Part shown: piece after piece, positions 3,444 to 62,193 of the stretch
Numbering within the stretch: the stretch's first letter is position 1
Layout of the letters: every line of letters starts with the position of its first letter
Assembly (NCBI GenBank): GCA_009773155.1
Contig: WOVA01000007.1
Span: forward strand, 1,108-65,107
Source of the DNA: Elusimicrobiota bacterium
GTDB taxonomy: Bacteria > Elusimicrobiota > Elusimicrobia > Elusimicrobiales > UBA9959
Length of the DNA: 64,000 nt
Direction of reading: 5' to 3'
Position numbers and translations under genes: made by a program
The notes under the pieces: generated by a model
The model's input: the letters and a program-made list of their open reading frames with translations, nothing else
Told to the model about the DNA's origin: nothing
The model's database searches: none

Positions 3444-3696
3444 CGTAATCCTCCGCGGAAACAAAGGTGCATTAGCAAGTCTATGGAAATCCCTCCATTA
3501 TTATATATTAGATTGGCGGGCCGCGGAAAACACCGGAGTACCGACGAGAGATCTCATGCTCATCCTTGGATTAGAAAATGCTACACCGGGAACACCCCGC
3601 CGGCGGACGCCGGCGGACGGCCTTGCCAAATCCCCGCTATATTTATATTATTCTTGCATTCCATAAAACCCTGGAGAACCGGAACGGAGCCGAAAA

Positions 3697-4387: not shown

Positions 4388-6301
<1,914 letters not shown>

Positions 6302-20596: not shown

Positions 20597-22252
20597 ATGA
20601 CATTTTCCGAAGAAAAAAAACGCCCGGCACCGGGCCTCCTCGCGGCCGGAACAGGGCGGCATTGTCCGCAGTCGGTGCCGGGAGCACTGCGAGCGGCCGC
20701 GGCCGGAGCGGCGGGGCTGTTGTTCTTTGTTATCGGCTTCCGGGAGCCCTATTCTTCGGACGAATTCTGGTTCCTCGTCAAAGCCTGGGACTTCCTGGGT
20801 TCCGGCTCGCTCGACGGCGAGTCGATGATACACCCGCCCCTCTATCTTCTTCTCACGTCCGGGCTCGTCGCCGCCTTCGATTCGCCCCTGGCCGCCCGTC
20901 TCACGGGCCTGCTCTGCTGCGCCTCGGCCGCGCTCCTGATAAAAAAAGCGGGCGAGGCGGACGGTGACGCGCGCCGCGCGGCGGCCGCGGCCGCCATGCT
21001 GGTCCTCTCGCCCGCGTTCATAAAGGCGGCCCTCGTCCTGGACACGGACAACACCCTGATCACCCTGGGAGCGGCCGCCATGGCGCTGGCGGCGGTCAGA
21101 GAACGGCGTTTCCTCCTCTCCCCGATATTTTTCTTCTGCCTGTGGTCCAAACTGACGGCCTGCGTGCCGCTGGCGGCCGCTTTCCTCGTGCACGCGGCGT
21201 GGGAGGACAGGCGTTCCGGCGGCGGCAGAACGCGAAGTACCGCCCTGGCCCTTTCCGCCGGCCTGGCGGCCTGGGCGCTCGCCTTTTACCTCTTCTGCAT
21301 GCTGAACGGCCTGCCTTTCGCCGCGCCGTTCGAATATATGTACTCGGCCGTTTTCTCCAAGAGCGTCGCCCCGGCTTCGGCGTATTATCAGGTTCTTCAG
21401 GCGGCGCTCTGGGCGGGCCTTCCCCTCTGCGGCCTCTTCCTGCTCGGACTGCCGCGAACCTTCACCGGAACCGCCTCGTCCCTGGACAGGCTTTCGCTGT
21501 CCGTATGCGCGATCATAGGGGTCGGTTACATATTCGTGGGAGGAACCCCGTTCGGCTTCCCCAAGTTCCAGATCCCCGCCTGGCCGTTCATCTGCTGGCT
21601 GGCCGCCGGCGCCGCGCTTAAAGCGCCCGGTCCGGCGCTATGGGCGGCCGCCGCGGCCGCGCTGGCCCTTTACGCCGGGGACCCGCTCTATTCTCTCAGG
21701 TTCTCGCTGAGGGAAGCGCTGGCTTCGGGAGCGGATCTCTCCCTGCCGGCGGCGAAGCTCGCCGCGCAGCTCGCGCTTCCGCTCCTCCCCGCCGCCGCGG
21801 CCGCGGTCCTCTTCAGGAAGACGCTGGGAGCCAGGCGGGCGCTGGCGGCCGGACTGACCGCAGTATTCGTCGGACAATCCCTCGCGCTTAACGCGCTCCA
21901 GGCCGGGTCTTATAACAGCGCCTACAATTACGGCGGAAAAGGGCTGGCCGGCGCCGCGGCCCTGGCCGGAGAGGCCCTCAAGGACGGAGGAAAAGTTATC
22001 GCTCCTCTCGAGATCTACGGCACGCTGCGCCTTTCCGGGCTGAAGCCTGAGAGGCTCCCCAACTCCCTGTGGGAAAGGGATCGCCTGCTTGCCGCGGCGG
22101 CCGACGCTGATTACAAGGGCGTGGTATACGGCATCCCCTCCAACACGGTGGAACAGGTGCGCCTGCTCAGGCATCCCGGGACGGTCTCCCTGTTCGGCGC
22201 GGAGGGCTGGCGCTTCGAACGGAGAGGAACGTACGAGATATGGACGAGATGA
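20597..22252 (+). CDS. GT-C fold membrane glycosyltransferase (ArnT/PMT, GT39/GT83-like)
   Basis: 551 aa, more than 10 predicted TM helices. N-terminal loop EPYSSDEFWF resembles the GT-C acidic loop. Overlaps the downstream GT2 by 13 nt. Confidence 0.7.
   Translation: MTFSEEKKRPAPGLLAAGTGRHCPQSVPGALRAAAAGAAGLLFFVIGFREPYSSDEFWFLVKAWDFLGSGSLDGESMIHPPLYLLLTSGLVAAFDSPLAARLTGLLCCASAALLIKKAGEADGDARRAAAAAAMLVLSPAFIKAALVLDTDNTLITLGAAAMALAAVRERRFLLSPIFFFCLWSKLTACVPLAAAFLVHAAWEDRRSGGGRTRSTALALSAGLAAWALAFYLFCMLNGLPFAAPFEYMYSAVFSKSVAPASAYYQVLQAALWAGLPLCGLFLLGLPRTFTGTASSLDRLSLSVCAIIGVGYIFVGGTPFGFPKFQIPAWPFICWLAAGAALKAPGPALWAAAAAALALYAGDPLYSLRFSLREALASGADLSLPAAKLAAQLALPLLPAAAAAVLFRKTLGARRALAAGLTAVFVGQSLALNALQAGSYNSAYNYGGKGLAGAAALAGEALKDGGKVIAPLEIYGTLRLSGLKPERLPNSLWERDRLLAAAADADYKGVVYGIPSNTVEQVRLLRHPGTVSLFGAEGWRFERRGTYEIWTR
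20647..20698 (+). repeat. ~52-bp GC-rich intragenic repeat, copy A (forward)
   Basis: cggaacagggcggcattgtccgcagtcggtgccgggagcactgcgagcggcc. 4 mismatches to copy B by my count. Confidence 0.9.
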
Positions 22253-22950: not shown

Positions 22951-22961
22951 CGGTCTTCCGG
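22795..22961 (+). repeat. 167-bp direct repeat, copy 1 (native 3' end of the GT2 gene plus 11 bp)
   Basis: 162/167 identical to 24610..24776 by my base-by-base comparison. Confidence 0.9.
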
Positions 22962-24342: not shown

Positions 24343-24347
24343 AAAAT

Positions 24348-24369
24348 CCTCCCTTTTATATCATTATAC
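24348..24369 (-). promoter_or_regulatory. Candidate extended -10 promoter (TGTATAAT) and SD (GGGAGG) for the ATPase gene
   Basis: The minus strand reads ...tttgtataatgatataaaagggaggattttATG. No convincing -35. Confidence 0.35.
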
Positions 24370-24435
24370 AAATTTGACTACACATTTTAGCACTATGATA
24401 CAATTTAGCGGATTCCACTGCTTACAGCCTGCTGT

Positions 24436-24609
24436 TTCCGTGTAAACCTCAAGATGCCTGGCTATATACTTAGGGAGGCCGAAGATAGCGGCTTTTTTTC
24501 TGGCGTTATGACCCAGGCCGGTCGCACGCGGCGCGTCATGGGCCAATCCCAGAACGGCTTCGGCAAACCGCCGCGGATCTCCTGGAGGCGCCAAAAGAGC
24601 TTCCTCTCC
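24436..24609 (-). pseudogene. C-terminal remnant of a GT4-type glycosyltransferase
   Basis: GEEALLAPPGDPRRFAEAVLGLAHDAPRATGLGHNARKKAAIFGLPKYIARHLEVY has the typical GT4 C-terminal pattern. It is truncated exactly at the repeat boundary 24609/24610. Confidence 0.45.
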
Positions 24610-24776
24610 GTCAAGGCCCGGCGGCTGGGATTCGGCATCCTCGAGCCGGATATCCTCCACAGAAAGCGGGCCGGCGGGCGTTCCCACGTTAGACTGTGCA
24701 CGCCTTTCGTTTTCCTGGCCCAGCTGCTGCGCCTGCGGTTTTCCGACTTCGGCGCCGGCAAGTAGCGGTCTTCCGG
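24610..24776 (+). repeat. 167-bp direct repeat, copy 2 (orphan duplicate of the GT2 3' end; non-functional fragment)
   Basis: Encodes KARRLGFGILEPDILHRKRAGGRSHVRLCTPFVFLAQLLRLRFSDFGAGK* with no upstream gene body. Ends 1 bp before the stop codon (24778-24780) of the AT-rich GT gene. Confidence 0.9.
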
Positions 24777-24777
24777 G

Positions 24778-26115: not shown

Positions 26116-26834
26116 TTCTTCCCTGCCGAATCAAACCACACATGATTAACGCAAATTGTATTTATGTAAGTATCGGCATAAACAAAATATCCTTTTGTCC
26201 TAAGGAATTCCTCAATATCCCTGTTTTTTACTTTACGGTGGTTTTCACTATACCCGCATGTTTCCGCGCAAATTACTGGTATAGGGTATTCAGTGAAATC
26301 AAGCGTTTTTAAAACCGGAAGATCCAGCCCTTCAATATCTATGGACAGCAAATCCGGATAGGCGGCAAAATTTTCCCTGATAATGCTGTTTATAGTCTTA
26401 ACCGGCAGCTTAATAACCGCCTGTATTTTATGGACGCCGTTCTTTTCTATGTTTTGCGCCGCTTCCCTGCTAAAGGTGTTTAACGCGGAGGATTTAAACA
26501 GGTAAAAGTCCTGTTCCGGCGCGTCATATTCACCTACGCCGATATTTAATATCGTATCTTCCGGCCTGATTTTTCTGATTATCGGGATTAAATTTTTATC
26601 CGCCTCAACCAGAACTCCCCTTGCGCCTCTCTCATAGAATTTATACGTGTTATTACTGCCTACCGGATGGGAAGCGCCCAACTCCAGATAGTGTGGCTTG
26701 CACAAACCCGTCTGCTGTAATAAAAAATCCATTACCACATCTTCACCGGCCTGCGAGTAGGAATTATTGTACTTTAGCGACGGTATGTAATGTGTTAAAG
26801 TTCTTTTTATAAAGTCTTTCATATTTTCATTCAT
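26112..26834 (-). CDS. FkbM-family SAM-dependent methyltransferase
   Basis: YLELGASHPVGSNNTYKFYERGARGVLVEADKN is an FkbM-like motif I/II arrangement. Confidence 0.6.
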   Translation of the reverse strand: MNENMKDFIKRTLTHYIPSLKYNNSYSQAGEDVVMDFLLQQTGLCKPHYLELGASHPVGSNNTYKFYERGARGVLVEADKNLIPIIRKIRPEDTILNIGVGEYDAPEQDFYLFKSSALNTFSREAAQNIEKNGVHKIQAVIKLPVKTINSIIRENFAAYPDLLSIDIEGLDLPVLKTLDFTEYPIPVICAETCGYSENHRKVKNRDIEEFLRTKGYFVYADTYINTICVNHVWFDSAGKK

Positions 26835-26835
26835 G

Positions 26836-28065
26836 TCATACTATCTCTATTTCCGGTAGCGGGAAAATGAACTTGCCGCCTTTTTCAATAAATTCACGCT
26901 CCCGTTCTAAAATAGAGTGCTTAAAATGCCATGGGAAAACCAGGAAATAGTCCGGTTTCATGGCGTGCGCTTCCGCTTCCGATATAATCGGGATATGGGT
27001 TCCAGGCGTGAAACAGCCGTATTTTTGTTCATTGACGTCCGCAATACAGGGGATATGTTTGCCAGTTAAATCGCAGAACTGGAGCAGCACGTTGCCTTTC
27101 GTGGAAGCGCCATAACCGATTATTTTTTTTCCGTCGCCGATCAATGCTTCAATCAGTTCCCGCAGGTTTTTCCGATGCAGAAAAACCCTTTCTTCAAAAT
27201 TCCGGTATGGTTTCGGCGTATCCAGTCCCATATCATCCTCCTGCCGCAGCATCCATTCAATTACCGGGTGATTGGAGCGATAATCCGCATTCTTTTTGCA
27301 CGCGGTAACGGCAAAACTGCCACCGTTAACGGCGTTCATCTGCACGTCTGTTATCCGAAGCCCCTGATCTTCCAGAAGACTTTTTATTACTTTGAACGAA
27401 TAGAATTCAAGATGTTCATGGCATACCGTATCGTATGAATTGGAGCGAAGCATTGAGGGCATATAACTCTGCTCAAAATGCCAGATGCCGTTATCCGACA
27501 AAACGGCTTCAATGTCTTTAACAAAAGCCGCAGGTTCTTTAAGATCATAAAACATGGCGATAGACGTTATGATTTTCGCTTTTTCACGCGGATATTTTTT
27601 GACAAAAGCTTCATGGGAAAAGAAATCGGGGATAAGATCGATATCCCGGGTATAAAAAGCCTTAAATTTTACCCCTGTCGGGTCAATCCCAACTCTTCTG
27701 TATTTGCCGGTATACGCTTTTAATGAGGTGGCGTCGTTACTGCCGATATCCAGAACCAGATCGCCTTGCGATAGCCTGGCCAAATTCTCCAGTGTTTTGA
27801 TTTTATTTGTAAGATGGCGCACCATATAAGCGTTCAAACCGGAACGATACCCATAATTATCGCCATACATTTCAGTCGAGTCGTAGGACTGTTTCAATTG
27901 AAGCAATCCGCATTTAGCGCACCATACCAGATCCAGCGGACCGATTGAAATTTTATCCGAAACACGCTTCTGGAAAACGCCGGTAAGCGCCTGGTCGCCC
28001 AGGGAAAGCACGGTTATAAGATTGCTATTGCGGCAAATACGGCATTTGTCTATTTCAGAGAACAT
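26836..28065 (-). CDS. NDP-sugar C-methyltransferase-like enzyme (Zn-ribbon + class I MT + C-methyltransferase C-domain)
   Basis: N-terminal CRICRN...CAKCGLLQL zinc ribbon, DIGSNDA motif I, about 409 aa as in TylCIII/NovU-type enzymes. Confidence 0.7.
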   Translation of the reverse strand: MFSEIDKCRICRNSNLITVLSLGDQALTGVFQKRVSDKISIGPLDLVWCAKCGLLQLKQSYDSTEMYGDNYGYRSGLNAYMVRHLTNKIKTLENLARLSQGDLVLDIGSNDATSLKAYTGKYRRVGIDPTGVKFKAFYTRDIDLIPDFFSHEAFVKKYPREKAKIITSIAMFYDLKEPAAFVKDIEAVLSDNGIWHFEQSYMPSMLRSNSYDTVCHEHLEFYSFKVIKSLLEDQGLRITDVQMNAVNGGSFAVTACKKNADYRSNHPVIEWMLRQEDDMGLDTPKPYRNFEERVFLHRKNLRELIEALIGDGKKIIGYGASTKGNVLLQFCDLTGKHIPCIADVNEQKYGCFTPGTHIPIISEAEAHAMKPDYFLVFPWHFKHSILEREREFIEKGGKFIFPLPEIEIV

Positions 28066-28082
28066 TTTACCCTCTCTTTATG

Positions 28083-29399
28083 TTATTGCACCTTATACAC
28101 AGCCTCAAACAATTCAGGATAAATTAAGTTTTTACGGTTCAAAAGCTCTTTCCAATGAGGTTTCACCGGATAATCTTCCCGCCGGATTGTAATACCGTCA
28201 AAAATATTTACGCTTTCAATCCACTGTTTTGTATAAAACCATCCTTTGCACAACCGATCTATGTGGCCAAACCACATATCTATCTGGACAAGGGTCATTT
28301 CATGCAGAGAAGATATATTTATGAACAGGTCAAACATCCGATCCGGCAGGCATCCAATCTGAGCAGGGGACAAAAAAGCTATAGAAGATTCCTCAAATTC
28401 CTGCCTGACTTCACGGTAATCGGAGAAATCCCTGAATTTAAATACACGCTGTCCAGGAAAAAGGCCGGTCAGATACCATTGCGACACATACAAGGCCGGC
28501 GGTATGTCAACAATGACTACCTGGATATTCGGCACAGCATGCAGGAGCGCATAACCGACTCTGCCATACCCCGCTCCTAATTCTATAATCCTCAGTTTTT
28601 CTTCCGGTTTACGGCTTATAAATTTCATAATTGTGTTGACTTCCAGCACAGAGTTGCAAATATCCTGAGTGACATTACGGCCTTTGTACTCTATTGCAAT
28701 CGGATTGCCAAGCACAGGTTCTTTCAATTGACTCAGTAAATTCAGATGATCGTTGCTGACAGTGAATTCCCACAACATACAGAGGAATTGTATATATTTC
28801 CTCCATTCTTCTTTTGTAAATCCTTCCGGTTTCGCGGCGATATTAAAATGGGCGGACATTTCGGCGTTTACCAAATCAGCACTTGACCAGTGCAGTTCCT
28901 TTTTTAATGCCTGGAATTGCGGGTTTACATGCCAATCACCAGTCCAGTTAAAATAATTGTTGTTAATGGTGCGCTTAAAATTCCCAATCCCCCCTGTTTC
29001 AAGCTGGAAAGTATTAAATACCATGTAATAAAGCCACAACTTGGAAGGGTGATAAACAACAGGAGATTTTAAAAGCACTTTAACCATTGAAACAATCTCC
29101 GGAATTTCTACGACACTCAATAATGCCTGATAGAAACCGTCCTTCAGTTCTCTCTGCCGGGCAAGATTATGTCCAATCTCATATCCAGATGAAGAGGCTG
29201 GCTGGAAACCGATTGCTTTCTTATACATCTCCGCCCCATCTTTGTATCTGCCCAGTTTTACAAGCGTATCGGCAATATTTGCGTATGTATCCGCCAAATA
29301 TTTTGGATCAGGAGGTAAATGCTTATTTTTTGGAGGTTTCCTATACCTTGAAACCTCAATACCGATGATTCTAAGCAAATATTTTATAATGCGTTTCAT
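28083..29399 (-). CDS. Putative sugar O-methyltransferase (class I MT fold) with TPR-like N-terminus
   Basis: ELGAGYGRVGYALL (GxGxG) followed by VVIVDIPPAL. N-terminal YANIADTLVKLGRYKDGAEMYKKAI is TPR-like. Confidence 0.55.
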   Translation of the reverse strand: MKRIIKYLLRIIGIEVSRYRKPPKNKHLPPDPKYLADTYANIADTLVKLGRYKDGAEMYKKAIGFQPASSSGYEIGHNLARQRELKDGFYQALLSVVEIPEIVSMVKVLLKSPVVYHPSKLWLYYMVFNTFQLETGGIGNFKRTINNNYFNWTGDWHVNPQFQALKKELHWSSADLVNAEMSAHFNIAAKPEGFTKEEWRKYIQFLCMLWEFTVSNDHLNLLSQLKEPVLGNPIAIEYKGRNVTQDICNSVLEVNTIMKFISRKPEEKLRIIELGAGYGRVGYALLHAVPNIQVVIVDIPPALYVSQWYLTGLFPGQRVFKFRDFSDYREVRQEFEESSIAFLSPAQIGCLPDRMFDLFINISSLHEMTLVQIDMWFGHIDRLCKGWFYTKQWIESVNIFDGITIRREDYPVKPHWKELLNRKNLIYPELFEAVYKVQ

Positions 29400-29401
29400 C
29401 T

Positions 29402-30664
29402 CTAACCTAAAAGCTTCAGTTTTTTGATTTTATATCTGGCAAAAACAACCCCATAGTCCCGACCGTAATATCTTGCAAATTCCGATCCTGTTTCTAAAAC
29501 GTTAAATTTGCAGATATCGTCCAATAGATCATAGTTTTCAATACCCGGCAAAGGCATGCACATTAGCCATGAATATCTCCCGGGTGCTATAAATTTCGCC
29601 GGAATCGTGATTTGAAACCGCATTATTTTTTCACCGGTGTAGTATTTGGCAAGCGGCTCGAGAATTGTAAAAATCCTCTTTTTATCCTTGTCATACAGAC
29701 TAATCGCCAGTTCTAAAAATTGCGACCAGCGTGACAAATTCAGCTCAACCAATAAGTTTATTTCCTCGTCATAATCAAACGCTTCTGCTTCTTTTAATGC
29801 TTCATCCACATTTTTAACTGAGATGAATTGATTGGTTTTGTCTGATAAATCCTCCCTTTGAATTTTTTTGATATTTTGACTTCCCCGTTTTGAATAAAAA
29901 TCAATCGCCAGTGGAGTATCATTATTAAATACCAATACGCCTTTTTCCAGAACAATCGTCTTTTCACACAACTGGGCTACTATCCCCATATTATGACTTA
30001 CAAACAAAACGGTTCTTCCTTTGTTTTTGCTGACCTCCTCCATCTTCCCGACGCATTTTTTCTGGAATTGCGCGTCTCCTACCGCGAGCACCTCGTCCAC
30101 AAGCAAAATCTCCGGCTCAAGGTTTGCGGCAACGGCAAAGGCTAACCTGACATACATTCCGGATGAATAACGCTTCACCGGCGTATCCAGAAACCGCTCA
30201 ATCTCTGCAAACGCTACAATTTCATCAAACTTGCGTTTAATCTCCATGCGGGCCATTCCGAGAATGGCGCCGTTGAGGTAAATATTTTCCCGGCCGGTCA
30301 ACTCTGGATGAAACCCTGTCCCCACCTCCAAGAGACTCGCCACCCGCCCGGTGATTTCAATCCGCCCGTTGCTCGGTTCGGTAATACGGGAAAGAAGTTT
30401 CAGCAGCGTTGACTTTCCCGCGCCGTTGCGCCCGATAATTCCTACTCTGTCACCGCGTTTGATTTCAAAAGAAACATCTTTAAGAGCAAAAAACTCCTCG
30501 GTTGTTGACGACTGTGAACCGGAAAACGGAGACAGGATTTTCCTGCCGAGATTTTGGACGCCCCGGGTTATCACATCGCGCAGGGCGGCGTAACTCTCCC
30601 GCTGCCGGTGACTGAGAATGTATTTCTTGCTGAGATTATCCACCTTAATTACAGTATCGTCCAT
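29402..30664 (-). CDS. wzt: Polysaccharide ABC exporter ATP-binding protein (Wzt/TagH-type) with C-terminal extension
   Basis: Walker A GRNGAGKST, signature YSSGMYVRLAFA, Walker B ILLVDEVLAVGD. About 170 extra C-terminal residues. Confidence 0.9.
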   Translation of the reverse strand: MDDTVIKVDNLSKKYILSHRQRESYAALRDVITRGVQNLGRKILSPFSGSQSSTTEEFFALKDVSFEIKRGDRVGIIGRNGAGKSTLLKLLSRITEPSNGRIEITGRVASLLEVGTGFHPELTGRENIYLNGAILGMARMEIKRKFDEIVAFAEIERFLDTPVKRYSSGMYVRLAFAVAANLEPEILLVDEVLAVGDAQFQKKCVGKMEEVSKNKGRTVLFVSHNMGIVAQLCEKTIVLEKGVLVFNNDTPLAIDFYSKRGSQNIKKIQREDLSDKTNQFISVKNVDEALKEAEAFDYDEEINLLVELNLSRWSQFLELAISLYDKDKKRIFTILEPLAKYYTGEKIMRFQITIPAKFIAPGRYSWLMCMPLPGIENYDLLDDICKFNVLETGSEFARYYGRDYGVVFARYKIKKLKLLG

Positions 30665-30686
30665 AAAATTTTTGCGGCAAAAATTT

Positions 30687-31526
30687 TTAAATTACATCCG
30701 CAAAAGTTTTCTCCGTTTTCCTGAAATACCAAATACCTGAAACAAGCGCAAGCAAAACCACTCCGGTAGAAATCAGGAAGCCGGGCATATAAACGGCCGA
30801 CTGCCCGCCTAGAATTGCCCAGCGGAACCCGTCTATGACTCCGACCATCGGGTTAAGCGAATAGAGCAACCGCCACTTTTGAGGTATTATACTGCTGGAA
30901 AAGCCAACCGGTGAGATATAGAGGCCCAGTTGCACAATAAAAGGAACGATATATCTAAAATCCCTGTATTTAGCATTAAGCGCGGTGAGCCAGAGACCGC
31001 ACCCCATGGCCGCCGCAAACGCAATAGCAACAAAAAACGGCAGCGTAACAATCCTCCAGTCGGGCACGAAGTGGTACCACATCATCAACCCGGCCAGAAT
31101 AAGCGCTGAAATCAGGAAATCAACAAAACCGGTGATTATGGAACTGGCGGGAATAATGAGCCTTGGGAAATAGACCTTGGAGATAAGGTTGGCATTGCCG
31201 ATGAGACTGCCGCTGGCCTCAGCAAGGGAGTTTGAGAAAAACTGCCATGGGAGCATAGCGGCAAAGACCAGAATCGGATATGGCGCGCCCTCCGATGGCA
31301 ACCTGGCCAGTTTGCCGAATACAACGGTAAACACCACCATGGTGAGAAAAGGACGAATCAGAGCCCATACGAAACCGATTACCGTCTGTTTGTAACGCAC
31401 CAGAATATCGCGCCAGGCAAGGAAATAAAACAGCTCTCTGTAGCGCCACAGATCCAGCCAGTAATGCTTTTCCGTCCGTCCCGCCTCAATGATTAGCTTC
31501 TTCTCAGTATTCATAGAGATTTTCAC
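30687..31526 (-). CDS. wzm: ABC-2 type polysaccharide exporter permease (Wzm)
   Basis: 6-TM ABC-2 pattern with LAWRDILVRYKQTVIGFVWALIRPF at the N-terminus. Adjacent to wzt. Confidence 0.9.
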   Translation of the reverse strand: MKISMNTEKKLIIEAGRTEKHYWLDLWRYRELFYFLAWRDILVRYKQTVIGFVWALIRPFLTMVVFTVVFGKLARLPSEGAPYPILVFAAMLPWQFFSNSLAEASGSLIGNANLISKVYFPRLIIPASSIITGFVDFLISALILAGLMMWYHFVPDWRIVTLPFFVAIAFAAAMGCGLWLTALNAKYRDFRYIVPFIVQLGLYISPVGFSSSIIPQKWRLLYSLNPMVGVIDGFRWAILGGQSAVYMPGFLISTGVVLLALVSGIWYFRKTEKTFADVI

Positions 31527-46953: not shown

Positions 46954-47376
46954 ATGCTCAGGAAAAAACGCTTCTATTTCTTCCTCCTGCTGACCTGCGC
47001 CGCGGCGGCGCTTTGGCATTTCCACCCTTATCTTTTCAGGGCTTTTTTCAGGGTTTCCGGCACGGTGGACCTGGCCCCGGGTTCGGCCGGGTTCCGGCCG
47101 AAGCCCAATACCATGCTCTTCATAGTCGCCCGGGACGAGGGAGGGGTCCCGTTCGCCGTACTGAAGGTCATAAACCCATCCTTCCCGCTGTCTTATTCGA
47201 TGGACAGCTCCGACCTCATCCTGCCCGAACTGCTGCCGCTCAGACTCCGGCTGGAAGCCTTTCTCAATACCCACGGCGAGATAGGCGCACCGAGGCGCGG
47301 GGACCTCTACGGTTCGCTGGACCGGGAAGTATTCCTGGCCGAGCAGGACTGCGATCTGCTGCTGGACCCAGTGTAG
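46954..47376 (+). CDS. Hypothetical protein with N-terminal TM; C-terminal part faintly resembles the CcmH/CcmI C-terminal domain
   Basis: MLRKKRFYFFLLLTCAAAALW. ...MLFIVARDEGGVPFAVLKV...PLSYSMD...RLEAFLNTHGEIGAPRRGDLYG. The stop codon TAG lies inside the inverted repeat of the element downstream. An alternative ATG is at 46909. Confidence 0.45.
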   Translation: MLRKKRFYFFLLLTCAAAALWHFHPYLFRAFFRVSGTVDLAPGSAGFRPKPNTMLFIVARDEGGVPFAVLKVINPSFPLSYSMDSSDLILPELLPLRLRLEAFLNTHGEIGAPRRGDLYGSLDREVFLAEQDCDLLLDPV

Positions 47377-47637
47377 TGTACCGCAGATATCTTGACTTTT
47401 GGAGGCCCGGATTTGAGCCGAGTTCAAGGCGCGACGAACGCGCATACCGGGGGTCTGTAAGTGAGGAGCAACGCAGAAATCGGCCAAAGACGGGCCTCCC
47501 CAAGGGGGCCGGGCGCTTTTTGGCTGAAACTGCGTCAGTCGTCGCTCAAATAGCAAAACTATAGTTCGCTCCTCCTTCCTTGTTTCGCTCATAAAATCGC
47601 CAGGCCAAAAGCAAAGCTATCTGCGGTACACTACACT
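47370..47637. repeat. 268-bp long-palindromic MITE-like element with perfect 20-bp terminal inverted repeats
   Basis: Left agtgtagtgtaccgcagata (47370-47389), right tatctgcggtacactacact (47618-47637). The two arms are diverged inverted copies of one ~125-nt unit, which is homologous to 57437..57593. Confidence 0.85.
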
Positions 47638-52496: not shown

Positions 52497-52510
52497 ATAA
52501 ATCGGGCCTG

Positions 52511-52602
52511 CAAATTCCAGGGACAGTATATTTAATTCACCGCGCACCAAGACGCGCCCGGGCGGCTGGCCCAGGAATTAAATATACTGTCCCCGGAATT
52601 TG
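52511..52602. repeat. 28-bp inverted repeat (1 mismatch) with a 36-bp spacer, between tRNA-Gln and spoVG
   Basis: caaattccagggacagtatatttaattc ... gaattaaatatactgtccccggaatttg. Confidence 0.85.
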
Positions 52603-52640
52603 CCCTTGCGGCCGGGCAGCCTCCGCGCGGGGCGGACGGC

Positions 52641-53937: not shown

Positions 53938-56099
53938 TCGGCGGCCGGCGCGTGAGTGAAGAGCGGATTCTCGGCGGGAATGTTGACCTGCCGCTGGTCC
54001 ACCGTCAGCTTCAGCCTGGCGGAGGGGATCTTTATCTCTATCTCGCCCGGCAGCCAGTACCCCTTGCGGGCGAAATAGCCGCCGAAGGAAAGAGTCATAC
54101 CCTCGCCGGAATCAAGGGACCTGAACCTGACGCCGGTCTCGTCGAGTACGGCCTTCTTTTTTCCGGACCTGAGCGCGGAGGAGCGCCTGCTCCCCTCGAA
54201 GGCCAGTCCCGGTTCCGAAAAAAAAGAGCCGGAGAAAAAATACCTCATTTCGGCGGCCAGCGCGGGAGCCCAGTAGACGAAACCTTCCCGGACCTTGCCG
54301 TCCAGCGCGGCCGGCTCGTCCATCTCGACGGTACCGCCCCGGACCTTGATCTTCCAGAGCGGCGCCAGCAGCGGACCGGTTATGGTGAACGTGAATTCAT
54401 CCGGGGCGATATAATTGATGACTCCGTCGAATTTAAGGCTCCGCCCGAAGGCCGACACTTCCAGCCCGCAGAACGAGGCGTACCCGGAATCCGACGGCAG
54501 GAACCGCGCCATCGAGCCCGCCAGGAGGGCGCCGGCCTCGGCCGGCGGCAACTTTCCCAGTTCGGCGAACAGCCTGCCGCGGACGGCGGCGAGCCGTTTC
54601 GCGTCCGTCTCAAGCTGCAGCGAGACCGTCCAGGCGGAGACCGCCTCGCGGGCGCGGCCCAGCGCCGAGTAGGCGTCGCCGACATGCTCCCAGATGACGG
54701 GGTCGGCGTTTATCAGCCGGGACGCCTCCAGCAGTTTTTCCAGCGCTTCGGCATGCAGCCCTTTTTTATAGAAAACCCAGCCCAGCGAATCGACATAGGC
54801 GCCGTTGCCGGGCTCGAGCTCCACCGCGCGGCGGATGAACCGCTCCGCCTCGTCCAGCTTCAGGCCCCTGTCGGCCAGCGAGTAACCGAGATAATTGAGG
54901 ACCACGGCATTGTCGGGTTCGGAGGAGAGTATTACCCTGAACTGCTCCTCGGCGGCGGCGATGTTCCCTTCCCTTTCCGAGACTATGGCGTACTGCATCC
55001 TGGCCTCGCGGTAGCCCGGCGAGGAAACGACGATCTTCTTCATGAGTTCCAGCGATCGCTTCGTCTTCCCGGTATCGTCCAGGCCCAGCGCCAGGAAATA
55101 GGCTATCTCGTCGTTCTTGGGCCACCTTGAGTGCGACTCCTCCAGCAGCCTGACCGCCTTGTCGGGCTGCCTCGCCTGGCTGTAGTAGTAGGCCAGCCGC
55201 ATGACCAGCCCCGGATTCTCCTTCAGCCCGGCGGAACGCTCCATATAGGCTATAGCCGAGGCGTAATCGTCGCGCTGCTCGGCTATCAGCGAAAGCCAGA
55301 AGCAGGAATCCGGGTCGGACGGCTCCAGCGCGTTGGCCTTGAGGAAATATTTTTCGGCGCGGGCGAGATCCCCCACGGCGGGTCCGGCCAGCAGCGCGCC
55401 CAGGTGGTTGATCAGTTCCCTGTTGGAAGGGTCGAGATCGGCCAGTTCCTCGTACTGCCCGACGGCGGCCGCGGTGTCGCCGCTGACCTCGTAATGATTG
55501 GCCAGCGCGAAGCGCGGCTGGAGGTAGTAGGAGTCCTCCGCGGCGGACTTGAGCATATACTCTTTCGCGAGGTCGTTGCGGCCGCGCATGCTGTGCAGCG
55601 TGGCGATCTGGAAATAGGTCTCGGCCGACGCGTCGGGCCGCAGCCCGGCGTAGCGCTCCAGGTATTTTATGCTGGCGTCGGGGTCGCGCGTGCTGTTGGC
55701 GCCGGCCAGCTGGTAGACGGCCTCGTCGTTCTCCGGCTCCAGTTCGACGGCCTTCGAGAAGGCCTTTGTAGCGCCGTCTATGTCGTTCTTCGCCCAGCGC
55801 ACGTTGCCGTAGAGTATCCAGTTATCGGCCGAGGACGGGTCGGCGCCTACTATGTAGTCGGCCCAGGCCTCGGCCTCGGCCACGCGCCCTATGTGAAGCG
55901 CCAGGTTGAGCGCCTGGCGGCGCACGTAGACCGACTGCGGGTCCAGCAGCATGGCGGCCTTGTACTCGTTGAGCGCCGCGTCGTAATCGCCTTTGCGCTC
56001 GCGCGACACCCCGGCCATGAAATGCAGGTAGGCGGATTTGTCGGCCGCGGCCGCGGCCGGAGCGGCCAGCAGCATCAAGGCGAGCGTAATGTTTCTCAT
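53934..56099 (-). CDS. Secreted TPR-repeat protein with C-terminal LolB-like domain
   Basis: Signal peptide MRNITLALMLLAAPAAAA. About 12 TPRs. The last ~190 aa resemble the LolB strand pattern (FGRSLKFDGVINYIAPDEFTFTITGPLLAPLWKIKV...LSFGGYFARKGYWLPGEIEIKIPSARLKLTVDQ). Confidence 0.75.
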   Translation of the reverse strand: MRNITLALMLLAAPAAAAADKSAYLHFMAGVSRERKGDYDAALNEYKAAMLLDPQSVYVRRQALNLALHIGRVAEAEAWADYIVGADPSSADNWILYGNVRWAKNDIDGATKAFSKAVELEPENDEAVYQLAGANSTRDPDASIKYLERYAGLRPDASAETYFQIATLHSMRGRNDLAKEYMLKSAAEDSYYLQPRFALANHYEVSGDTAAAVGQYEELADLDPSNRELINHLGALLAGPAVGDLARAEKYFLKANALEPSDPDSCFWLSLIAEQRDDYASAIAYMERSAGLKENPGLVMRLAYYYSQARQPDKAVRLLEESHSRWPKNDEIAYFLALGLDDTGKTKRSLELMKKIVVSSPGYREARMQYAIVSEREGNIAAAEEQFRVILSSEPDNAVVLNYLGYSLADRGLKLDEAERFIRRAVELEPGNGAYVDSLGWVFYKKGLHAEALEKLLEASRLINADPVIWEHVGDAYSALGRAREAVSAWTVSLQLETDAKRLAAVRGRLFAELGKLPPAEAGALLAGSMARFLPSDSGYASFCGLEVSAFGRSLKFDGVINYIAPDEFTFTITGPLLAPLWKIKVRGGTVEMDEPAALDGKVREGFVYWAPALAAEMRYFFSGSFFSEPGLAFEGSRRSSALRSGKKKAVLDETGVRFRSLDSGEGMTLSFGGYFARKGYWLPGEIEIKIPSARLKLTVDQRQVNIPAENPLFTHAPAAE

Positions 56100-56599
56100 G
56101 TCTTCTCCCCGGGGGAGAGCGCCCTTCTCATCAGCAGCGCGTCCTCCGCGTTATTGTAGAACTTAGGCCGGCGGCCTTCCACCTCGAAGCCCGCGGCGGC
56201 GTACAGGGCCCTGGCCGGCGCGTTATTTTCCCCCACCTCCAGCGTGATGGAGGCGCAGGCGCTCTTGCGCGCGTACTCGGCGCATTTGCCCAGCAGAGCG
56301 CGCGCGGCGCCGCGGCGCAGGAAGGCGGCCGAGACCGCCAGCGAATTGATCTGCGCCTCGGGGCGGACTATCCAGAAATTGATGAAGCCCGCCGGCGCGC
56401 CGGCCGGTCGTAGAACTCCCGGCACCGACCGCGGCAAATGCCGCCCTGATCCGTCCAGCTCGGCGACCAGCGTCACCGACGAGGGATTTGCCAGTTCCTC
56501 GCGCAGGCCCTTCTCCCCCCAGGCCGGGTAGCCCGGCCAGGCGGCCTCTATGGCGGCCAGCGCGGGGATATCCTTTTCGAAGGCGCGGCGCACCGTCAT
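56096..56599 (-). CDS. rimI: Ribosomal-protein-alanine N-acetyltransferase (GNAT), carrying an in-frame repeat insertion
   Basis: Start reassigned to MTVRRAFEKDI (ATGA overlap with the tsaB stop). GNAT motif A LRRGAARALL. Canonical tsaE-tsaB-rimI context. Confidence 0.85.
   Translation of the reverse strand: MTVRRAFEKDIPALAAIEAAWPGYPAWGEKGLREELANPSSVTLVAELDGSGRHLPRSVPGVLRPAGAPAGFINFWIVRPEAQINSLAVSAAFLRRGAARALLGKCAEYARKSACASITLEVGENNAPARALYAAAGFEVEGRRPKFYNNAEDALLMRRALSPGEKT
56402..56453 (-). repeat. ~52-bp GC-rich intragenic repeat, copy C (reverse)
   Basis: ggccggtcgtagaactcccggcaccgaccgcggcaaatgccgccctgatccg. 4 mismatches to the reverse complement of copy B. Confidence 0.9.
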
Positions 56600-57447
56600 T
56601 TTTTGCGTCCCCGGGCTTCGGCTTTGGCCCTGGCGTCCAGCTCGTACTTGGCGGGCTTGAGATAGAGCGGCTCCAGCGGCCCGCCGAAAATTTCCCCGGC
56701 GGCCAGGACGGCCTGAGGCGTGACCATAGAGATGGCCGGAGGGGCCTTGGGGCAGCCGGCCGGCGCGAGCGAGTAGATCTCCGGTTTCTCCTCGGCGTCG
56801 GCTACGCACAGGTCGGGCTCGGCCGAGGCCAGCAGGTCGCGGGCTCCCGCTTCGGGCAGCCAGACCGGAGCGCCGAGCGGCTTAGGCGTTCTCCCTCCGT
56901 CGGACGCGCGGAAGAACTGCACGAAATATTCTTCCTTGAAAGCGTGCAGCAGGACAGCAAGTTTCCCGCCGCGCGGAACAGGGCGGCATTTGCCGCGGTC
57001 GGTGCCGGGAGCACTGCGACCGGCCGGGAGCAGCGGCGCCGCGGCCAGGGCGAGAACTTCGAAGACGGTCACTCCACGCGCGCGGCAGCCCAGCAGCAGT
57101 TCCAGCGAGCCGGCCAGCGTGAGGCCTATCCTGATGCCGGTGAACCGGCCGGGCCCGCGCACGGCGCAGACCCCGGAGATATCGCCAAGACCCACCCCGG
57201 CCTGTTTCAGCAGCCGGTCCAGCGAAGAAAAAAGCAGCCTCTCCTGGTTGGGCTCCTTTACGCTGAGGGAATGGAACTTCCCCGCGGCCGGATCAGGGCG
57301 GCTATGTCCGCAGTCGGTGGCCGGTCGTATAACTCCCGGCACCTGTGGCGCCGGAGGCGCTGTTCCGCCGGGAGCCCTGCGAGCGGCCAGCCCCAGCTTG
57401 AGGCGGCTGCCGCTGGTGCATATGGAAAGCTCCAGAGCCTGTTGCAC
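56596..57447 (-). CDS. tsaB: tRNA t6A37 biosynthesis protein TsaB (YeaZ), carrying two in-frame repeat insertions
   Basis: GPGRFTGIRIGLTLA. The N-terminus ALELSICTSGSRLKLGLAA fits the TsaB IDTS region. Putative GTG start at 57447, since the upstream part of the track ORF overlaps tsaE. Confidence 0.8.
   Translation of the reverse strand: MQQALELSICTSGSRLKLGLAARRAPGGTAPPAPQVPGVIRPATDCGHSRPDPAAGKFHSLSVKEPNQERLLFSSLDRLLKQAGVGLGDISGVCAVRGPGRFTGIRIGLTLAGSLELLLGCRARGVTVFEVLALAAAPLLPAGRSAPGTDRGKCRPVPRGGKLAVLLHAFKEEYFVQFFRASDGGRTPKPLGAPVWLPEAGARDLLASAEPDLCVADAEEKPEIYSLAPAGCPKAPPAISMVTPQAVLAAGEIFGGPLEPLYLKPAKYELDARAKAEARGRKK
56974..57025 (+). repeat. ~52-bp GC-rich intragenic repeat, copy B (forward)
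   Basis: cggaacagggcggcatttgccgcggtcggtgccgggagcactgcgaccggcc. Confidence 0.9.
57289..57388. repeat. Composite 100-bp copy D: forward repeat split by a nested reverse-oriented copy (57320..57367)
   Basis: cggatcagggcggctatgtccgcagtcggtg | gccggtcgtataactcccggcacctgtggcgccggaggcgctgttccg | ccgggagccctgcgagcggcc. Confidence 0.8.
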
Positions 57448-57593
57448 AAACCCCGATTCTGCTGCAATTGCGGCTTTTGGCCTGCGGCTTCGTTGCTCGT
57501 CGCTTACAGGCCCAACGGGCCTGCTCGTTCCTCGCGCCTCGTCTCGGCCACAAAATCCGCAATTTCGCGACGAAAGCGGTTTGTGCAACAGGC
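57437..57593. repeat. 157-bp long-palindromic element with 16-bp perfect terminal inverted repeats, in the tsaE-tsaB spacer
   Basis: gcctgttgcacaaacc (57437-57452) and ggtttgtgcaacaggc (57578-57593). The interior aligns by eye with the arms of 47370..47637. Confidence 0.85.
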
Positions 57594-57596
57594 TCT

Positions 57597-58097
57597 TCAC
57601 TTCTTTTTTCTGCGCCATTCTTTCTCCATGCGCTCCAGCGCGGACAGGTGTCCCTTCCCGGCGGCGGAGGCGCGTATCTCCCGGCGGTCGCCGCCGGCCA
57701 GCCTGAACTCCAGTTCCAGCCTCTCCGCGCCGTAGGCGGTGTCCTTTATATCCTCGCCCCATTCCACGGCCATTATCCCGTCGGAACGGCCGGCGTAATC
57801 GGCGAAGCCGGTGTTCTCCAGTTCGCCGGGGCCCAGCCTGAAAAGGTCGAAATGAAAAACTTTCAGCCGGCCGCGATAGGTCCTTAGTATGTTGAAGCTG
57901 GCGCTGACCGGCGAATCCTTCGATCCCAGCGCCGCGGCCAGGCCTTTGACGAACTCCGTCTTACCGGCGCCTATCGGCCCGGTAAGGACCAGGCATTCCC
58001 CGCCGCGCGCCGCGCGGGCCAGCGCCGCCGCCAGCAGCCGGGTCTCCGCCGGGAGGGCCGTCTTAAAAATGCTCAAAAACGGGGATCTCGCCGCCAT
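57597..58097 (-). CDS. tsaE: tRNA t6A37 biosynthesis ATPase TsaE (YjeE)
   Basis: Walker A LTGPIGAGKTEFVKGL. ...FHFDLFRL... Confidence 0.85.
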   Translation of the reverse strand: MAARSPFLSIFKTALPAETRLLAAALARAARGGECLVLTGPIGAGKTEFVKGLAAALGSKDSPVSASFNILRTYRGRLKVFHFDLFRLGPGELENTGFADYAGRSDGIMAVEWGEDIKDTAYGAERLELEFRLAGGDRREIRASAAGKGHLSALERMEKEWRRKKK

Positions 58098-59019
58098 AAT
58101 CCTCCACCCCGACGCCGCGGCCCTTCACCGCCTCGCCCACGCGCAGCGCGCCGGGCAGCAGCCGCCGGACCAGCGCCTCTTTCGACGGGCGGCAGGTGAA
58201 GACCAGGCCGTAATCCTCGCCGCCGGCGAGGGCGTACATCCGCCAGTCCTTTTTTCTGAGCGCGGCCCAGCGCCGCAGTTCCGGGGAGCAGACCGCTTCC
58301 GGAAGCCGGGCCTTCACCCGGCAGCCCGAAAGCCTGGCGATGATGCCGAGACTGCGGTAGAGCCCGTCCGAGTTATCCAGCATGGCCGAAGCCAGCCCGC
58401 GCCGGCCTATCAGCGCGCCCTCGGCCAGCATGGGACGGGGGCGCCAGAAAGCGTCTATGAGCGCGGCCCTGCCGCGGCGGGCGGAGCCCGACATCAGCAG
58501 CTCCAGCCCCGCGCGCGCCAGGCCCAGCGGCCCGAGCGAATAGACCAGGTCGCCCGGGCGCGCGCCGTACCTGGTGACGAAGCCGCGGCATTCGCCGAGC
58601 ACGGTCATGGAAAAATGCTTCTTATCCGAGCGGGCGATATTGCCGCCGGCCACGGCTACGCGCCAGCGCCGGGCTTCGGCCCGCAGCGCCGTTATGAACC
58701 GGCGGGCCCAGCTCCCGCTGGCGGCGCGCGGCAGGCCGGCGGCCGTGAGCAGCGCCAGCGGCCTCACATCGCCCATCGCGGCCAGGTCGCTGAGGTTAAT
58801 TCGCAGCAGCTTGCCGGCGATGAGTTCCGGCTTCGAAAAAGAGTCCAGGAAGTGGGCGCCCTCGCACATCTCGTCTACGGTGGCGACAAGGCGATAACCC
58901 GGGCGTACCTTGAGCACAGCGGCGTCATCGCCTGGCCCCAGCAGGAGCGGCCCGCCTGCGCCGGGGAAGGCGCGCTCTATGCGCTCCAGCAGCGCGTCCT
59001 CGCCGCCGGCCTTCTTCAT
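58063..59019 (-). CDS. thiL: Thiamine-monophosphate kinase
   Basis: GPGDDAAVL, VATVDEMCEGAHF, LRINLSDLAAMG (AIR-synthase-related fold). Confidence 0.9.
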   Translation of the reverse strand: MKKAGGEDALLERIERAFPGAGGPLLLGPGDDAAVLKVRPGYRLVATVDEMCEGAHFLDSFSKPELIAGKLLRINLSDLAAMGDVRPLALLTAAGLPRAASGSWARRFITALRAEARRWRVAVAGGNIARSDKKHFSMTVLGECRGFVTRYGARPGDLVYSLGPLGLARAGLELLMSGSARRGRAALIDAFWRPRPMLAEGALIGRRGLASAMLDNSDGLYRSLGIIARLSGCRVKARLPEAVCSPELRRWAALRKKDWRMYALAGGEDYGLVFTCRPSKEALVRRLLPGALRVGEAVKGRGVGVEDYGGEIPVFEHF

Positions 59020-59900
59020 CTTTCCAGCCTACGGAACGCGGCGGGAAGGGCTTCGACCAGGTCGGTGGCCGTAACGCTCCTGGCGTTTAACCGGCGCGCC
59101 GCGATGGTCCCGGCGAGACCGTGAAGACCTACGCCCAGGCGCGCGGCGCGGCAGCCCGTCTCGGCGGTAAAACCGTCTCGCCGGCCGAGCTGAGCCCAGA
59201 GGCCGCCGATGAAACCGGCCAGCGCGTCGCCGGAGCCACCCTTGGCCAGCTCGGGCCCGCCGAAGGAATTTTTCCAGAGCTTATCCCCGCAGGCTATAAC
59301 CGTGCCCTGACCTTTGAGCACGGCGACGACCCCTCGCGCCGCCAGCGCCGCGGCGGCCCCGGCGCGGTCACCGCGGAAGCCCGGGAAAAGCCTGTCGAAC
59401 TCGCCGGGATGAGGCGTGAAAACGGCGGGGGCCCCGCCGGGCAGGCCTTTCCCTTTCCAACCGGACGCGGCCAGCGCGTTGAGCGCGTCGGCGTCCACTA
59501 CGCAGGGCAGGCGCAGCCCGCGCAGTACCTTTACGGCGAAGTGAGCGGACTTCATCGAGAGCCCGGGGCCTATTACGGCCAGGCCGTAATTTCCGGCGGA
59601 AACTGTTTTGAGCAGGAGCGCCGCGGCGGGCCCGCTGAAAAAATCATTTCCCGGCAGCGGCACCGTCATGGCCTCGGGGACCGCGGCCGCCATCACCGCC
59701 CGCTCGGACTCCGGCAGGGCGACGGTCACCAGCCCGGCGCCGGAGCGCAGCGCGGCGCGGGCGCAGACCACGGCCGCGCCGTTCATACCGCGCGAGCCGG
59801 CTATGAGAAGCAGCCGGCCAAAATCTCCCTTATGCGCTCCGCGCGGGCGGAGCGGAAGAAGCCGCCGCAGGGATGACACAGAGTCGGTCAGGATTTTCAT
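59016..59900 (-). CDS. nnrD: ADP-dependent NAD(P)H-hydrate dehydratase (YjeF C-terminal type)
   Basis: HKGDFGRLLLIAGS, TPHPGEF, GGSGDALAGFIGGL. Confidence 0.85.
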   Translation of the reverse strand: MKILTDSVSSLRRLLPLRPRGAHKGDFGRLLLIAGSRGMNGAAVVCARAALRSGAGLVTVALPESERAVMAAAVPEAMTVPLPGNDFFSGPAAALLLKTVSAGNYGLAVIGPGLSMKSAHFAVKVLRGLRLPCVVDADALNALAASGWKGKGLPGGAPAVFTPHPGEFDRLFPGFRGDRAGAAAALAARGVVAVLKGQGTVIACGDKLWKNSFGGPELAKGGSGDALAGFIGGLWAQLGRRDGFTAETGCRAARLGVGLHGLAGTIAARRLNARSVTATDLVEALPAAFRRLER

Positions 59901-60324
59901 TTTCGCCAGGCCAGCGCCGCGGCGCAGGCGTACGCGGAAGTATGAGTGAGGGAAAGTTCTATGCGCGCGCGGGCGTAGCGCCGCGCGCTTATCTTCACCG
60001 AGGGACGTCCGGAACCGCTTTTTATTATCTCGATGGATCTCAACGGCAGGCTCCTGTCGTCGAGCGCCTTTATGACCGCTTCCTTGGCGGCGAAGCGCGC
60101 GGCTATCCGCTCATAGCGGTTGGCCGAGGAGCTGCAGTACTTTATCTCGCCGGGAGTGAAGAAACGGGTCAGGAAGGAAGGCCTGCGCGAGGCCAGTCGG
60201 CGCACGCGCGAAACCTCGACTATGTCTATGCCGAGGCCCGGGACGAAGGCCCGTCGCAGAGCTCCGGGCACCGACTGCGGCAAAAGCCGCCCTGCTCCGT
60301 CCCCGGACTTGCCGCGGGGGCTCA

Positions 60325-60325
<1 letters not shown>
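59897..60325 (-). CDS. acpS: Holo-[acyl-carrier-protein] synthase, N-terminal extension containing a repeat copy
   Basis: GIDIVEVSRV, FAAKEAVIKAL. The ATG overlaps the glmS stop (ATGA). Confidence 0.85.
60248..60299 (-). repeat. ~52-bp GC-rich intragenic repeat, copy E (reverse)
   Basis: ggcccgtcgcagagctccgggcaccgactgcggcaaaagccgccctgctccg. 6 mismatches to the reverse complement of copy B. Confidence 0.85.

Positions 60326-62193
<1,868 letters not shown>

Follow-up and report, generated by a model that had tools for sequence, protein, structure and literature searches.

We analysed a 64-kb stretch of DNA from an uncultured Elusimicrobiota bacterium (hereafter the window, numbered from its first letter) and found that its minus-strand tsaB gene includes a 99-nt segment (57289–57387, 33 codons), in which one short repeat unit lies inside another. 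A 51-nt unit on the plus strand, which we designate type A, is interrupted after its base 31 by a whole 48-nt unit of opposite orientation (57320–57367), which we designate type B. In our interpretation, a small, non-autonomous repeat that forms hairpins inserted twice in succession into tsaB to give this composite; we assign this reading a probability of roughly 0.8.

Layout of the composite in tsaB

On the plus strand, the 3 pieces of the composite read CGGATCAGGGCGGCTATGTCCGCAGTCGGTG (57289–57319), GCCGGTCGTATAACTCCCGGCACCTGTGGCGCCGGAGGCGCTGTTCCG (57320–57367), and CCGGGAGCCCTGCGAGCGGC (57368–57387). Excision of the middle 48 nt leaves a contiguous 51-nt unit that aligns without gaps with 4 other copies in the window. 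The insertion point of the type-B unit, between bases 31 and 32 of the type-A unit, is located at the base of the second of the 2 type-A hairpins (hairpin 2). In the minus-strand open reading frame (ORF) of tsaB, the composite encodes LKLGLAARRAPG, GTAPPAPQVPGVIRPA, and TDCGHSRPDPAAGK in succession (translation across the composite, ...LKLGLAARRAPGGTAPPAPQVPGVIRPATDCGHSRPDPAAGKFHSLSV...), with neither a stop codon nor a frameshift. A covariance model was built from 34 copies, with both pieces at this position of tsaB (site 1) left out, and the whole window was scanned with filters off. The model matched the inner unit on the minus strand at 57316–57371 with 34.2 bits, which is far above chance.

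A preliminary description of the window had reported a repeat nested in inverted orientation and in frame, and the sequence, the ORF translation, and the model match all bear this out. Its figure of 100 bp becomes 99 nt because base 57388 belongs to the flank. The possibility raised there that 57320–57367 might be unrelated to the repeat is answered by the same score, which was obtained from a model that excluded both pieces.

The inner unit as a type-B repeat

The preliminary description regarded the inner unit as the same element with a diverged middle. This part did not hold: the inner unit is not a decayed type-A unit but a complete member of a sister subfamily, which shares the 3′ hairpin of type A and has a covarying 5′ hairpin of its own. 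A metagenome scan with the shared 3′ module retrieved 6 canonical copies and 8 units of 48 nt with another 5′ hairpin, GCGCC-TCC/TCT-GGCGC or a compensated variant, as opposed to GCGG-N6-CCGC in the canonical units. The inner unit aligns gap-free to these 8 metagenomic type-B copies and matches one of them, L073, at 43 of 48 positions (a hand count on the gap-free alignment); its hairpin 1, GCGCC-TCC-GGCGC, is identical to that of L073 and is found in metagenome contigs of Elusimicrobiota. Two pairs of the type-B 5′ hairpin (hairpin 1B) covary, namely pair 15–21 (CG in 5 copies, GC in 4) and pair 14–22 (GC in 8, CG in 1). The best named matches of the PurA protein adjoining the L073 copy are all from Elusimicrobia, at no more than 62% identity; type B therefore occurs in distant branches of Elusimicrobiota.

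Three further observations concern type-B copies. The nested unit (57320–57343) and the rimI type-A unit (56403–56426), separated by approximately 870 nt, both close hairpin 2 with a rare T-A pair in place of C-G (GAGTTATACGA and GAGTTCTACGA, respectively). In the counting set, which comprises 33 distinct copies but not the nested one, this pair occurs in the rimI copy alone, and the shared variant suggests the use of a local donor or gene conversion between modules. At locus L060 (6837–6884), a type-B unit precedes a partial, 15-nt repeat of its start, and at locus L096 (1284–1331), a type-B unit lies in frame within the ORF of an IS91-like transposase.

A modular family of two-hairpin repeats

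The canonical type-A unit (CGGAACAGGGCGGCATTGTCCGCAGTCGGTGCCGGGAGCTCTGCGACCGGC, 51 nt) has a 5′ arm followed by hairpin 1, then a linker and hairpin 2. Types A and B are parts of one modular family that is present in several lineages of Elusimicrobiota, and their units are 16 or 17 codons (48 or 51 nt) long. Hairpin 2 (GCCGGGAGC-TCT-GCGACCGGC, 21 nt) contains 3 covarying pairs; pair 38–52 is GC in 25 copies, CG in 5, and AU in 2, and pair 39–51 is GC in 24, CG in 6, and UA in 2. A tandem G.A/A.G mismatch in this hairpin is retained in 32 of 33 distinct copies. The covariation score of hairpin 2 was reached by none of 500 shuffles, and it collapsed in slid controls.

A genome scan identified 28 true loci in 7 metagenome-assembled genomes (MAGs) of Elusimicrobia/Elusimicrobiales. 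One of the repeat-bearing MAGs has a GC content of approximately 45%, and its units are still approximately 70% GC; 3 tandem type-A units with an exact 51-nt period occur in a MAG of this GC content (locus L010, 3430–3582). Intergenic mosaics of solo hairpin-1B and hairpin-2 modules are found at loci L090 (8150–8260) and L098. Between lineages whose housekeeping proteins share only approximately 60% identity, the unit sequence remains approximately 90% constant, which would point to horizontal spread or to tight co-evolution with a mobilising enzyme.

Two sets of candidates were rejected. A looser hairpin-2 pattern gave 60 loci, approximately 45 of which are chance occurrences in GC-rich DNA with upstream parts that do not fit the unit; 4 genome matches in Actinobacteria and Proteobacteria are likewise due to chance. 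An Rfam search of 56000–60500 (E ≤ 1) returned no family and only 4 weak, unrelated chance matches, and no description of such repeats in Elusimicrobia was found in the literature. The A/B family has apparently not been described so far.

Empty, eroded, and filled alleles in relatives

Six syntenic loci were compared with the window over approximately 4 kb of aligned DNA, in which the relatives have nucleotide identities of approximately 80–88%. Their TsaB homologues (75–85% identity) consist of 229–244 residues, compared with 283 residues in the window. Comparison of tsaB site 1 revealed 3 states: (i) in 5 loci the site is empty, with CTGGGGCT directly joined to GGCCGCGGGGAAG; (ii) in locus L004 (GCA_964631475.1) only the outer unit is represented, by an eroded remnant of 33 nt, CGGATCAGGGCGGCTATGTCCGC followed by GGCCGGCGGC; and (iii) the outer and inner units occur together in the window lineage alone. 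The hairpin-1 loop CTATGT is found only in the outer unit of the window and in the L004 remnant. The remnant lacks 18 nt around the point at which the type-B unit sits in the window, and in the simplest reading of these letters its tail would be the 2 hairpin-2 arms of a type-A unit, abutted after in-frame deletions of 6 and 12 nt.

Clean 51-nt empty alleles exist for the type-A units in rimI, acpS, and a second position in tsaB (site 2), and for the unit in thiL of locus L037. The ThiL protein of L037 (also of L038 and L011) has 335 residues, compared with 316–319 elsewhere, and the additional segment is a canonical 51-nt type-A unit (+17 residues) near the N-terminus (L037, ~3580–3630); thiL of the window does not contain this unit.

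The composite thus stems from separate insertion events and not from one old duplication, given that 5 tsaB loci are empty, one has a remnant of the outer unit only, and the window lineage alone has both units. Separate insertions had been proposed in the preliminary description, together with a search for tsaB alleles with 0, 1, or 2 units; all of these states exist, the one-unit state in eroded form. The opposite outcome envisaged there, an identical segment in all relatives with neither intermediates nor another nested case, is contradicted by the differences between relatives and agrees with the data only in that no second nested case was found.

Junctions and target site

The flanks of 35 copies revealed a loose preference: on the left side, C occurs at −3 in 20 copies, G at −2 in 24, G at −1 in 33, and C at 0 in 25; on the right side, C occurs at +1 in 34 copies and G at +2 in 29. 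At all 6 sites for which empty alleles are available, the nested one included, the canonical unit lies between G-N and C. The usual junction is (C)GGC^CGG, the caret marking the insertion point. The nested site reads CCCGG^CACC in the orientation of the inner unit, is located within GGTG^CCGG of the outer unit, and matches the flank consensus only at G −1 and C +1. The preliminary description had supposed a target preference for the ggtgcc core of the element. The G-N^C rule, usually GGC^CGG, weakly favours such a preference, but the motif is too loose to single out the break point, and no second nested case was found among approximately 55 other copies.

Alignments of filled and empty alleles gave junction microhomologies of 1 nt at the nested site, 3 nt in rimI and at tsaB site 2, and 5 nt for the outer unit; no target duplication of fixed length was seen at these pairs. 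Only CGG/CCG is common to the two ends of the unit, CGGAAC... and ...GACCGGC, and a 6-nt symmetry (GGCCGG/CCGGCC) appears only with the flanks included.

Host genes and the predicted TsaB structure

The type-A consensus contains no stop codon in any of the 6 frames, and the nested type-B copy is open in 5. Of 36 distinct type-A loci, approximately 20 have a coding signal on both flanks in compatible phase, approximately 12 sit at the ends or junctions of genes, and a few are intergenic; among them, at least 4 reading frames are used. These coding calls are codon-usage log-likelihoods trained on called genes, which are not transferable to low-GC or distant lineages and hence to most type-B copies. 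A frame call based on the GC content of third codon positions was too noisy and was replaced by this measure. In-frame insertions are found in tsaB (3 units), rimI, acpS, thiL (L037), and a MobA-like ORF (L019). In L019, inverted type-A units are located in the C-terminal tail of an XdhC-like protein (4156–4206) and in the N-terminal GxSxRM...KPLL motif of the MobA-like protein (5620–5670). The gene order tsaE-tsaB-rimI is conserved among related loci.

An AlphaFold model of the window TsaB, based on an alignment of 93 sequences, has a mean pLDDT (predicted local distance difference test) of 85.2 and a predicted template modelling score of 0.82. Confidence is low essentially only at 2 inserts, both modelled as coil: the composite (residues ~24–57), forming a loop between the strands of residues 15–23 and 58–64, and the site-2 insert (residues ~140–161), forming a loop between a helix and a strand. 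Structural comparison between the model and the YeaZ/TsaB structures of Escherichia coli, Salmonella, Pseudomonas, and Thermotoga gave template modelling scores of 0.70–0.76. In this model, the inserts appear to be disordered surface loops on an intact TsaB fold, and the composite lies in the β-hairpin after the LKLGL strand, where the preliminary description had placed it. The modelled position of the inserts in loops explains why they are tolerated.

Origin of the composite

Under the preferred reading, a 51-nt type-A unit would have entered the codons of the β2–β3 turn of tsaB, and a 48-nt type-B unit would then have inserted, in the opposite orientation, between A bases 31 and 32. An enzyme that recognises the hairpins probably mobilised the units in trans, in the form of single-stranded DNA. 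This is suggested by the constraint on intrastrand pairing, with its strand-asymmetric mismatch, and by the lack of both terminal inverted repeats and a fixed duplication. Our best guess for the candidate enzyme is a RAYT-type or IS200/IS605-type HUH/Y1 transposase. Copies would persist in genes solely by virtue of a length and composition that leave the reading frame open, and the short junction microhomologies would permit occasional precise or partial loss. A role at the RNA level is disfavoured because copies occur in both orientations relative to transcription.

Several observations weigh against 2 successive insertions of a mobile hairpin. The small hairpins are thermodynamically unexceptional (z −0.3 to −1.8), so that the case for them is based on covariation. 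No second nested case occurs among approximately 55 other copies, and a metagenome scan aimed at composites and tandems (CGGANCAGGGCGGC N66-75 GAGCNCTGCGANNGGCC) returned no match. No transposase domain was found in the gene tables covering the window, the search having been limited to the window and 8-kb loci; nor does a transposase lie between the inverted copies in L019, where the pair flanks the XdhC-like and MobA-like genes, or in L035. The junction register varies by 2–3 nt between sites, and tsaB site 2 and acpS fit a unit of −1 to 49 better than one of 1 to 51; base-precise cut-and-paste is not demonstrated because of this disagreement.

The distribution of the outer unit is a further point on this side. 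The unit is common to the window and L004 (10040–10103), yet the gene tree places the window with empty-site lineages. The nucleotide identity of the window is 83.7–84.7% to L004 versus 85–87.5% to L040 and L041/42. Quartet-informative sites group the window with L042 in 86 cases, with L004 in 57, and with L040 in 44 (24, 7, and 7, respectively, within tsaB), and the site-1 flank of the window is near-identical to that of L041, whose site is empty. Therefore, precise loss in several lineages, parallel insertion at one site, or recombination is required. Precise loss would be mechanically easy because a 5-nt direct repeat, GCCGC, flanks the outer unit. It is also an ingredient of a wider proposal, which we consider tentative and rather doubtful: that the A and B units are active, phylum-wide mobile hairpins of codon length, copied as single-stranded DNA by a hairpin-recognising enzyme, inserted at G-N^C regardless of frame, precisely losable, and continuously adding and removing loops of 16–17 residues in essential proteins. 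Precise loss in such a system would explain the outer unit common to non-sister lineages.

Among the alternatives, the composite could have entered tsaB in a single step, either as a type-A unit with type B already nested or as an inverted, REPIN-like doublet (reverse-complemented hairpin 2B, reverse-complemented hairpin 1B, and hairpin 2A) which joined an older, L004-like remnant consisting of hairpin 1 only. The window and L004 indeed differ by one contiguous 66-nt block (2 nt, the type-B unit, and 16 nt of type A), solo hairpin modules and mosaics occur (L090 and L098), and the whole composite can fold as one long REPIN-like hairpin in which the reverse-complemented hairpin 2 of type B pairs with hairpin 2 of type A (minimum free energy −32.6 kcal/mol, z −2.8). 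We nevertheless consider a single step unlikely: exact removal of the 48-nt type-B unit restores a canonical 51-nt type-A unit with canonical ends, the L004 tail is most simply read as type-A hairpin-2 arms after in-frame deletions, and the scan of the metagenome collection found neither composites nor tandems of that spacing. Less probable still is a local origin of the inner copy without transposition, by template switching or gene conversion from an inverted neighbour during replication of this hairpin-rich region. The T-A closing pair shared with rimI and the 5 insertions within approximately 1.6 kb would fit such copying; the 5′ half of the inner unit, by contrast, is a type-B hairpin present in no other copy of the window, the same 48-nt architecture occurs in unrelated metagenome contigs, and the ends of the inner unit are exactly canonical.

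It is very improbable that the inserts are primarily features under selection in the protein (functional loops or linear motifs, for example), with the DNA repeat being secondary. Their peptides are rich in Gly and Pro and predicted to be exposed, and one peptide type (G-x-G-R-H-x-P-Q-S-V-P-G-A-L-R) recurs in several proteins; but reading of one and the same DNA in both orientations and at least 4 frames yields unrelated peptides, copies are also located at gene ends and between genes, conservation tracks base-pairing rather than codons, and relatives with approximately 80–88% nucleotide identity do without the inserts. Repeat-induced mis-joining during assembly is hardly conceivable as the source of the composite. 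The short-read Logan contig L002 does stop inside the inner unit, at window position 57329, but the reading frame is intact and the composite is identical in at least 3 assemblies. The window sequence corresponds to a contig of ENA ERZ27284374 and is in NCBI also as contig WPII01000009.1 of GCA_009773265.1; the independent ENA assembly L003 spans the composite with 100% identity, and the 283-residue TsaB has been deposited from 2 NCBI MAGs (KAF0127017.1 and KAF0157028.1).

Other units and insertions in the window

The window contains 6 copies of the units, the inner and outer ones included, 3 on each strand, and GC skew there is uniformly negative (Table 1). The effect of the acpS unit on protein length is apparent from 10 AcpS proteins of the same 90%-identity cluster, of which 8 have 125 residues, one 107, and one 128, versus 142 in the window. 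A model match at 57144–57213 (20 bits) was rejected as a copy; it is the conserved GPGRFTG region, which is present in all TsaB homologues.

Table 1. Repeat units, their host gene tsaB, and the neighbouring inverted-repeat element in the window.
Feature	Position	Strand	Remarks
Outer type-A unit, positions 1–31 (5′ arm, hairpin 1 GCGG-CTATGT-CCGC, linker AGTCGGTG)	57289..57319	+	48.1 bits, E = 2.5e-9
Nested type-B unit, complete 48 nt: CGGAACAG / hairpin 1B GCGCC-TCC-GGCGC / ACA / hairpin 2 GGTGCCGGGAGTTATACGACCGGC	57320..57367	-	34.2 bits, E = 3.6e-6; both hairpins keep pairing
Outer type-A unit, positions 32–51 (rest of hairpin 2: CCGGGAGC-CCT-GCGAGCGGC)	57368..57387	+	16.4 bits, E = 0.04
Type-A unit, tsaB site 2, peptide GRSAPGTDRGKCRPVPR	56974..57024	+	79.3 bits; six related loci have a clean 51-nt gap
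Type-A unit in rimI, peptide GSGRHLPRSVPGVLRPA	56403..56453	-	80.8 bits; clean 51-nt gap in six relatives; rimI 150 aa there, 167 aa here
Type-A unit in N-terminal codons of acpS	60249..60299	-	78.1 bits; clean 51-nt gap in four relatives covering the site
Type-A unit at 5′ end of ORF 20597–22252	20647..20697	+	80.7 bits; coding signal on right flank only
Annotated tsaB coding sequence (283 aa, GTG start), which hosts three units	56596..57447	-	Homologues carry PF00814
165-nt inverted-repeat element between tsaE stop and tsaB start, unrelated to A/B units	57434..57598	.	Absent from six relatives

The arms of the 165-nt element are 46-nt inverted repeats with 78% complementarity, and the element is open in the tsaB frame. 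In the 6 relatives without it, the end of tsaE and the tsaB ATG overlap (MAQKKEV...). In the window, the frame of the ancestral ATG still runs through the element (+55 residues), and the annotated GTG start lies inside it. Neither the window nor any of the fetched loci yielded a second copy of this element. The region 56400–60300 thereby contains 6 insertion events in approximately 4 kb, that is to say, 5 units and the 165-nt element, distributed over acpS, the tsaE/tsaB junction, tsaB (3 units), and rimI; the remaining 60 kb of the window contains only one unit copy. Counted from the ancestral ATG, tsaB alone includes 315 nt of inserted DNA.

Other repeats were observed elsewhere in the window. 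A 167-nt direct repeat (97% identical; 22795–22961 and 24610–24776) flanks ORF 23164–24342, which encodes an AAA_14/DUF4143 ATPase, and sits at the edge of a low-GC block (40–45%; 24000–31000) with glycosyltransferase, methyltransferase, and ABC-transporter genes; this block may be a glycan island acquired horizontally. Beside a small GIY-YIG gene lies an inverted repeat of 29 nt that is near-perfect (97%, 36-nt spacer; 52510–52603), and a 33-nt inverted repeat (91%) with arms 202 nt apart occupies 47370–47637; both are unrelated to the A/B family.

Relation to known repeat systems

The A/B family is closest to the Rickettsia palindromic elements (RPEs) in behaviour and to the REP/BIME/REPIN repeats in anatomy. 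RPEs are approximately 100–150 bp long and lie in frame in many Rickettsia genes (Ogata et al. 2000, 2002; PMC10969869). Both groups are small palindrome-forming repeats with many copies in frame in unrelated housekeeping genes, where the peptide is tolerated by the fold; both comprise several families within one bacterial lineage, and no transposase is known for either. Unlike RPEs, the A/B units are 48 or 51 nt long and GC-rich, consist of 2 exchangeable hairpin modules, and reside in Elusimicrobiota (a distinction by size and host; relatedness in sequence is not expected). Unit-in-unit nesting and tandem arrays of exact period, as seen in the A/B family, also set it apart from RPEs.

REP sequences are by definition extragenic, and REPINs are mobilised by RAYT (Y1/HUH) transposases. 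The A/B units share with these repeats the short, GC-rich, imperfect hairpins with compensatory changes, the occurrence as single copies, tandems, inverted pairs, and mosaics (L010, L090, and L098), and the lack of a fixed target duplication; the nested composite also folds, as a REPIN does, as an inverted pair of hairpin modules. By contrast, approximately half of the A/B copies, or more, lie in coding sequence, and the GTAG-type 5′ motif of classical REPs is missing.

Intragenic MITEs (miniature transposable elements with inverted repeats), such as ERIC/RU, Coxiella QMITE, Correia, and Nezha, are usually 100–400 bp long, with terminal inverted repeats and a target-site duplication of fixed length (PMC10969869, PMC3184786, PMC2759123, PMC5896051). 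Like them, the A/B units are small non-autonomous repeats that can fuse in frame with host ORFs and are polymorphic in presence among related genomes. They differ from MITEs in having no terminal inverted repeats (a terminal symmetry of 3–6 nt at most, flanks included) and only 1–5 nt of variable junction microhomology, and they reach half the length of the smallest usual MITEs. The PATEs derived from IS200/IS605 seem to resemble the A/B units in their subterminal hairpins at both ends, strand-asymmetric hairpin imperfections, duplication-free insertion beside a left-flank motif that is short and conserved, and plausible precise loss; for the A/B family, however, no TnpA was identified in the window, the left-flank motif is only partly conserved, and the 6 copies in the window exhibit no orientation bias. 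We regard this resemblance as a possible lead to the mechanism, not as a demonstrated relationship.

To our knowledge, the in-frame spread of palindromic repeats into housekeeping genes has hitherto been regarded as a peculiarity of Rickettsia. The same behaviour is now found in an unrelated, free-living, GC-rich phylum, and its A/B units are the smallest of their kind, with a whole-codon constraint and an unusually clear two-hairpin modularity backed by covariation. The wider interest is in the family and in the tsaB series, of which the nested copy is a sound and informative detail. The tsaB locus provides a natural series, from the empty site through the eroded single unit to the unit within a unit, together with 4 further dated insertions within 4 kb, which makes insertion, erosion, and possibly precise excision directly testable. 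For annotation, additional segments of 16–17 residues in proteins of Elusimicrobiota may be repeat DNA and not lineage-specific domains. The locus also represents a set of natural loop-insertion experiments in an essential protein of t6A synthesis.

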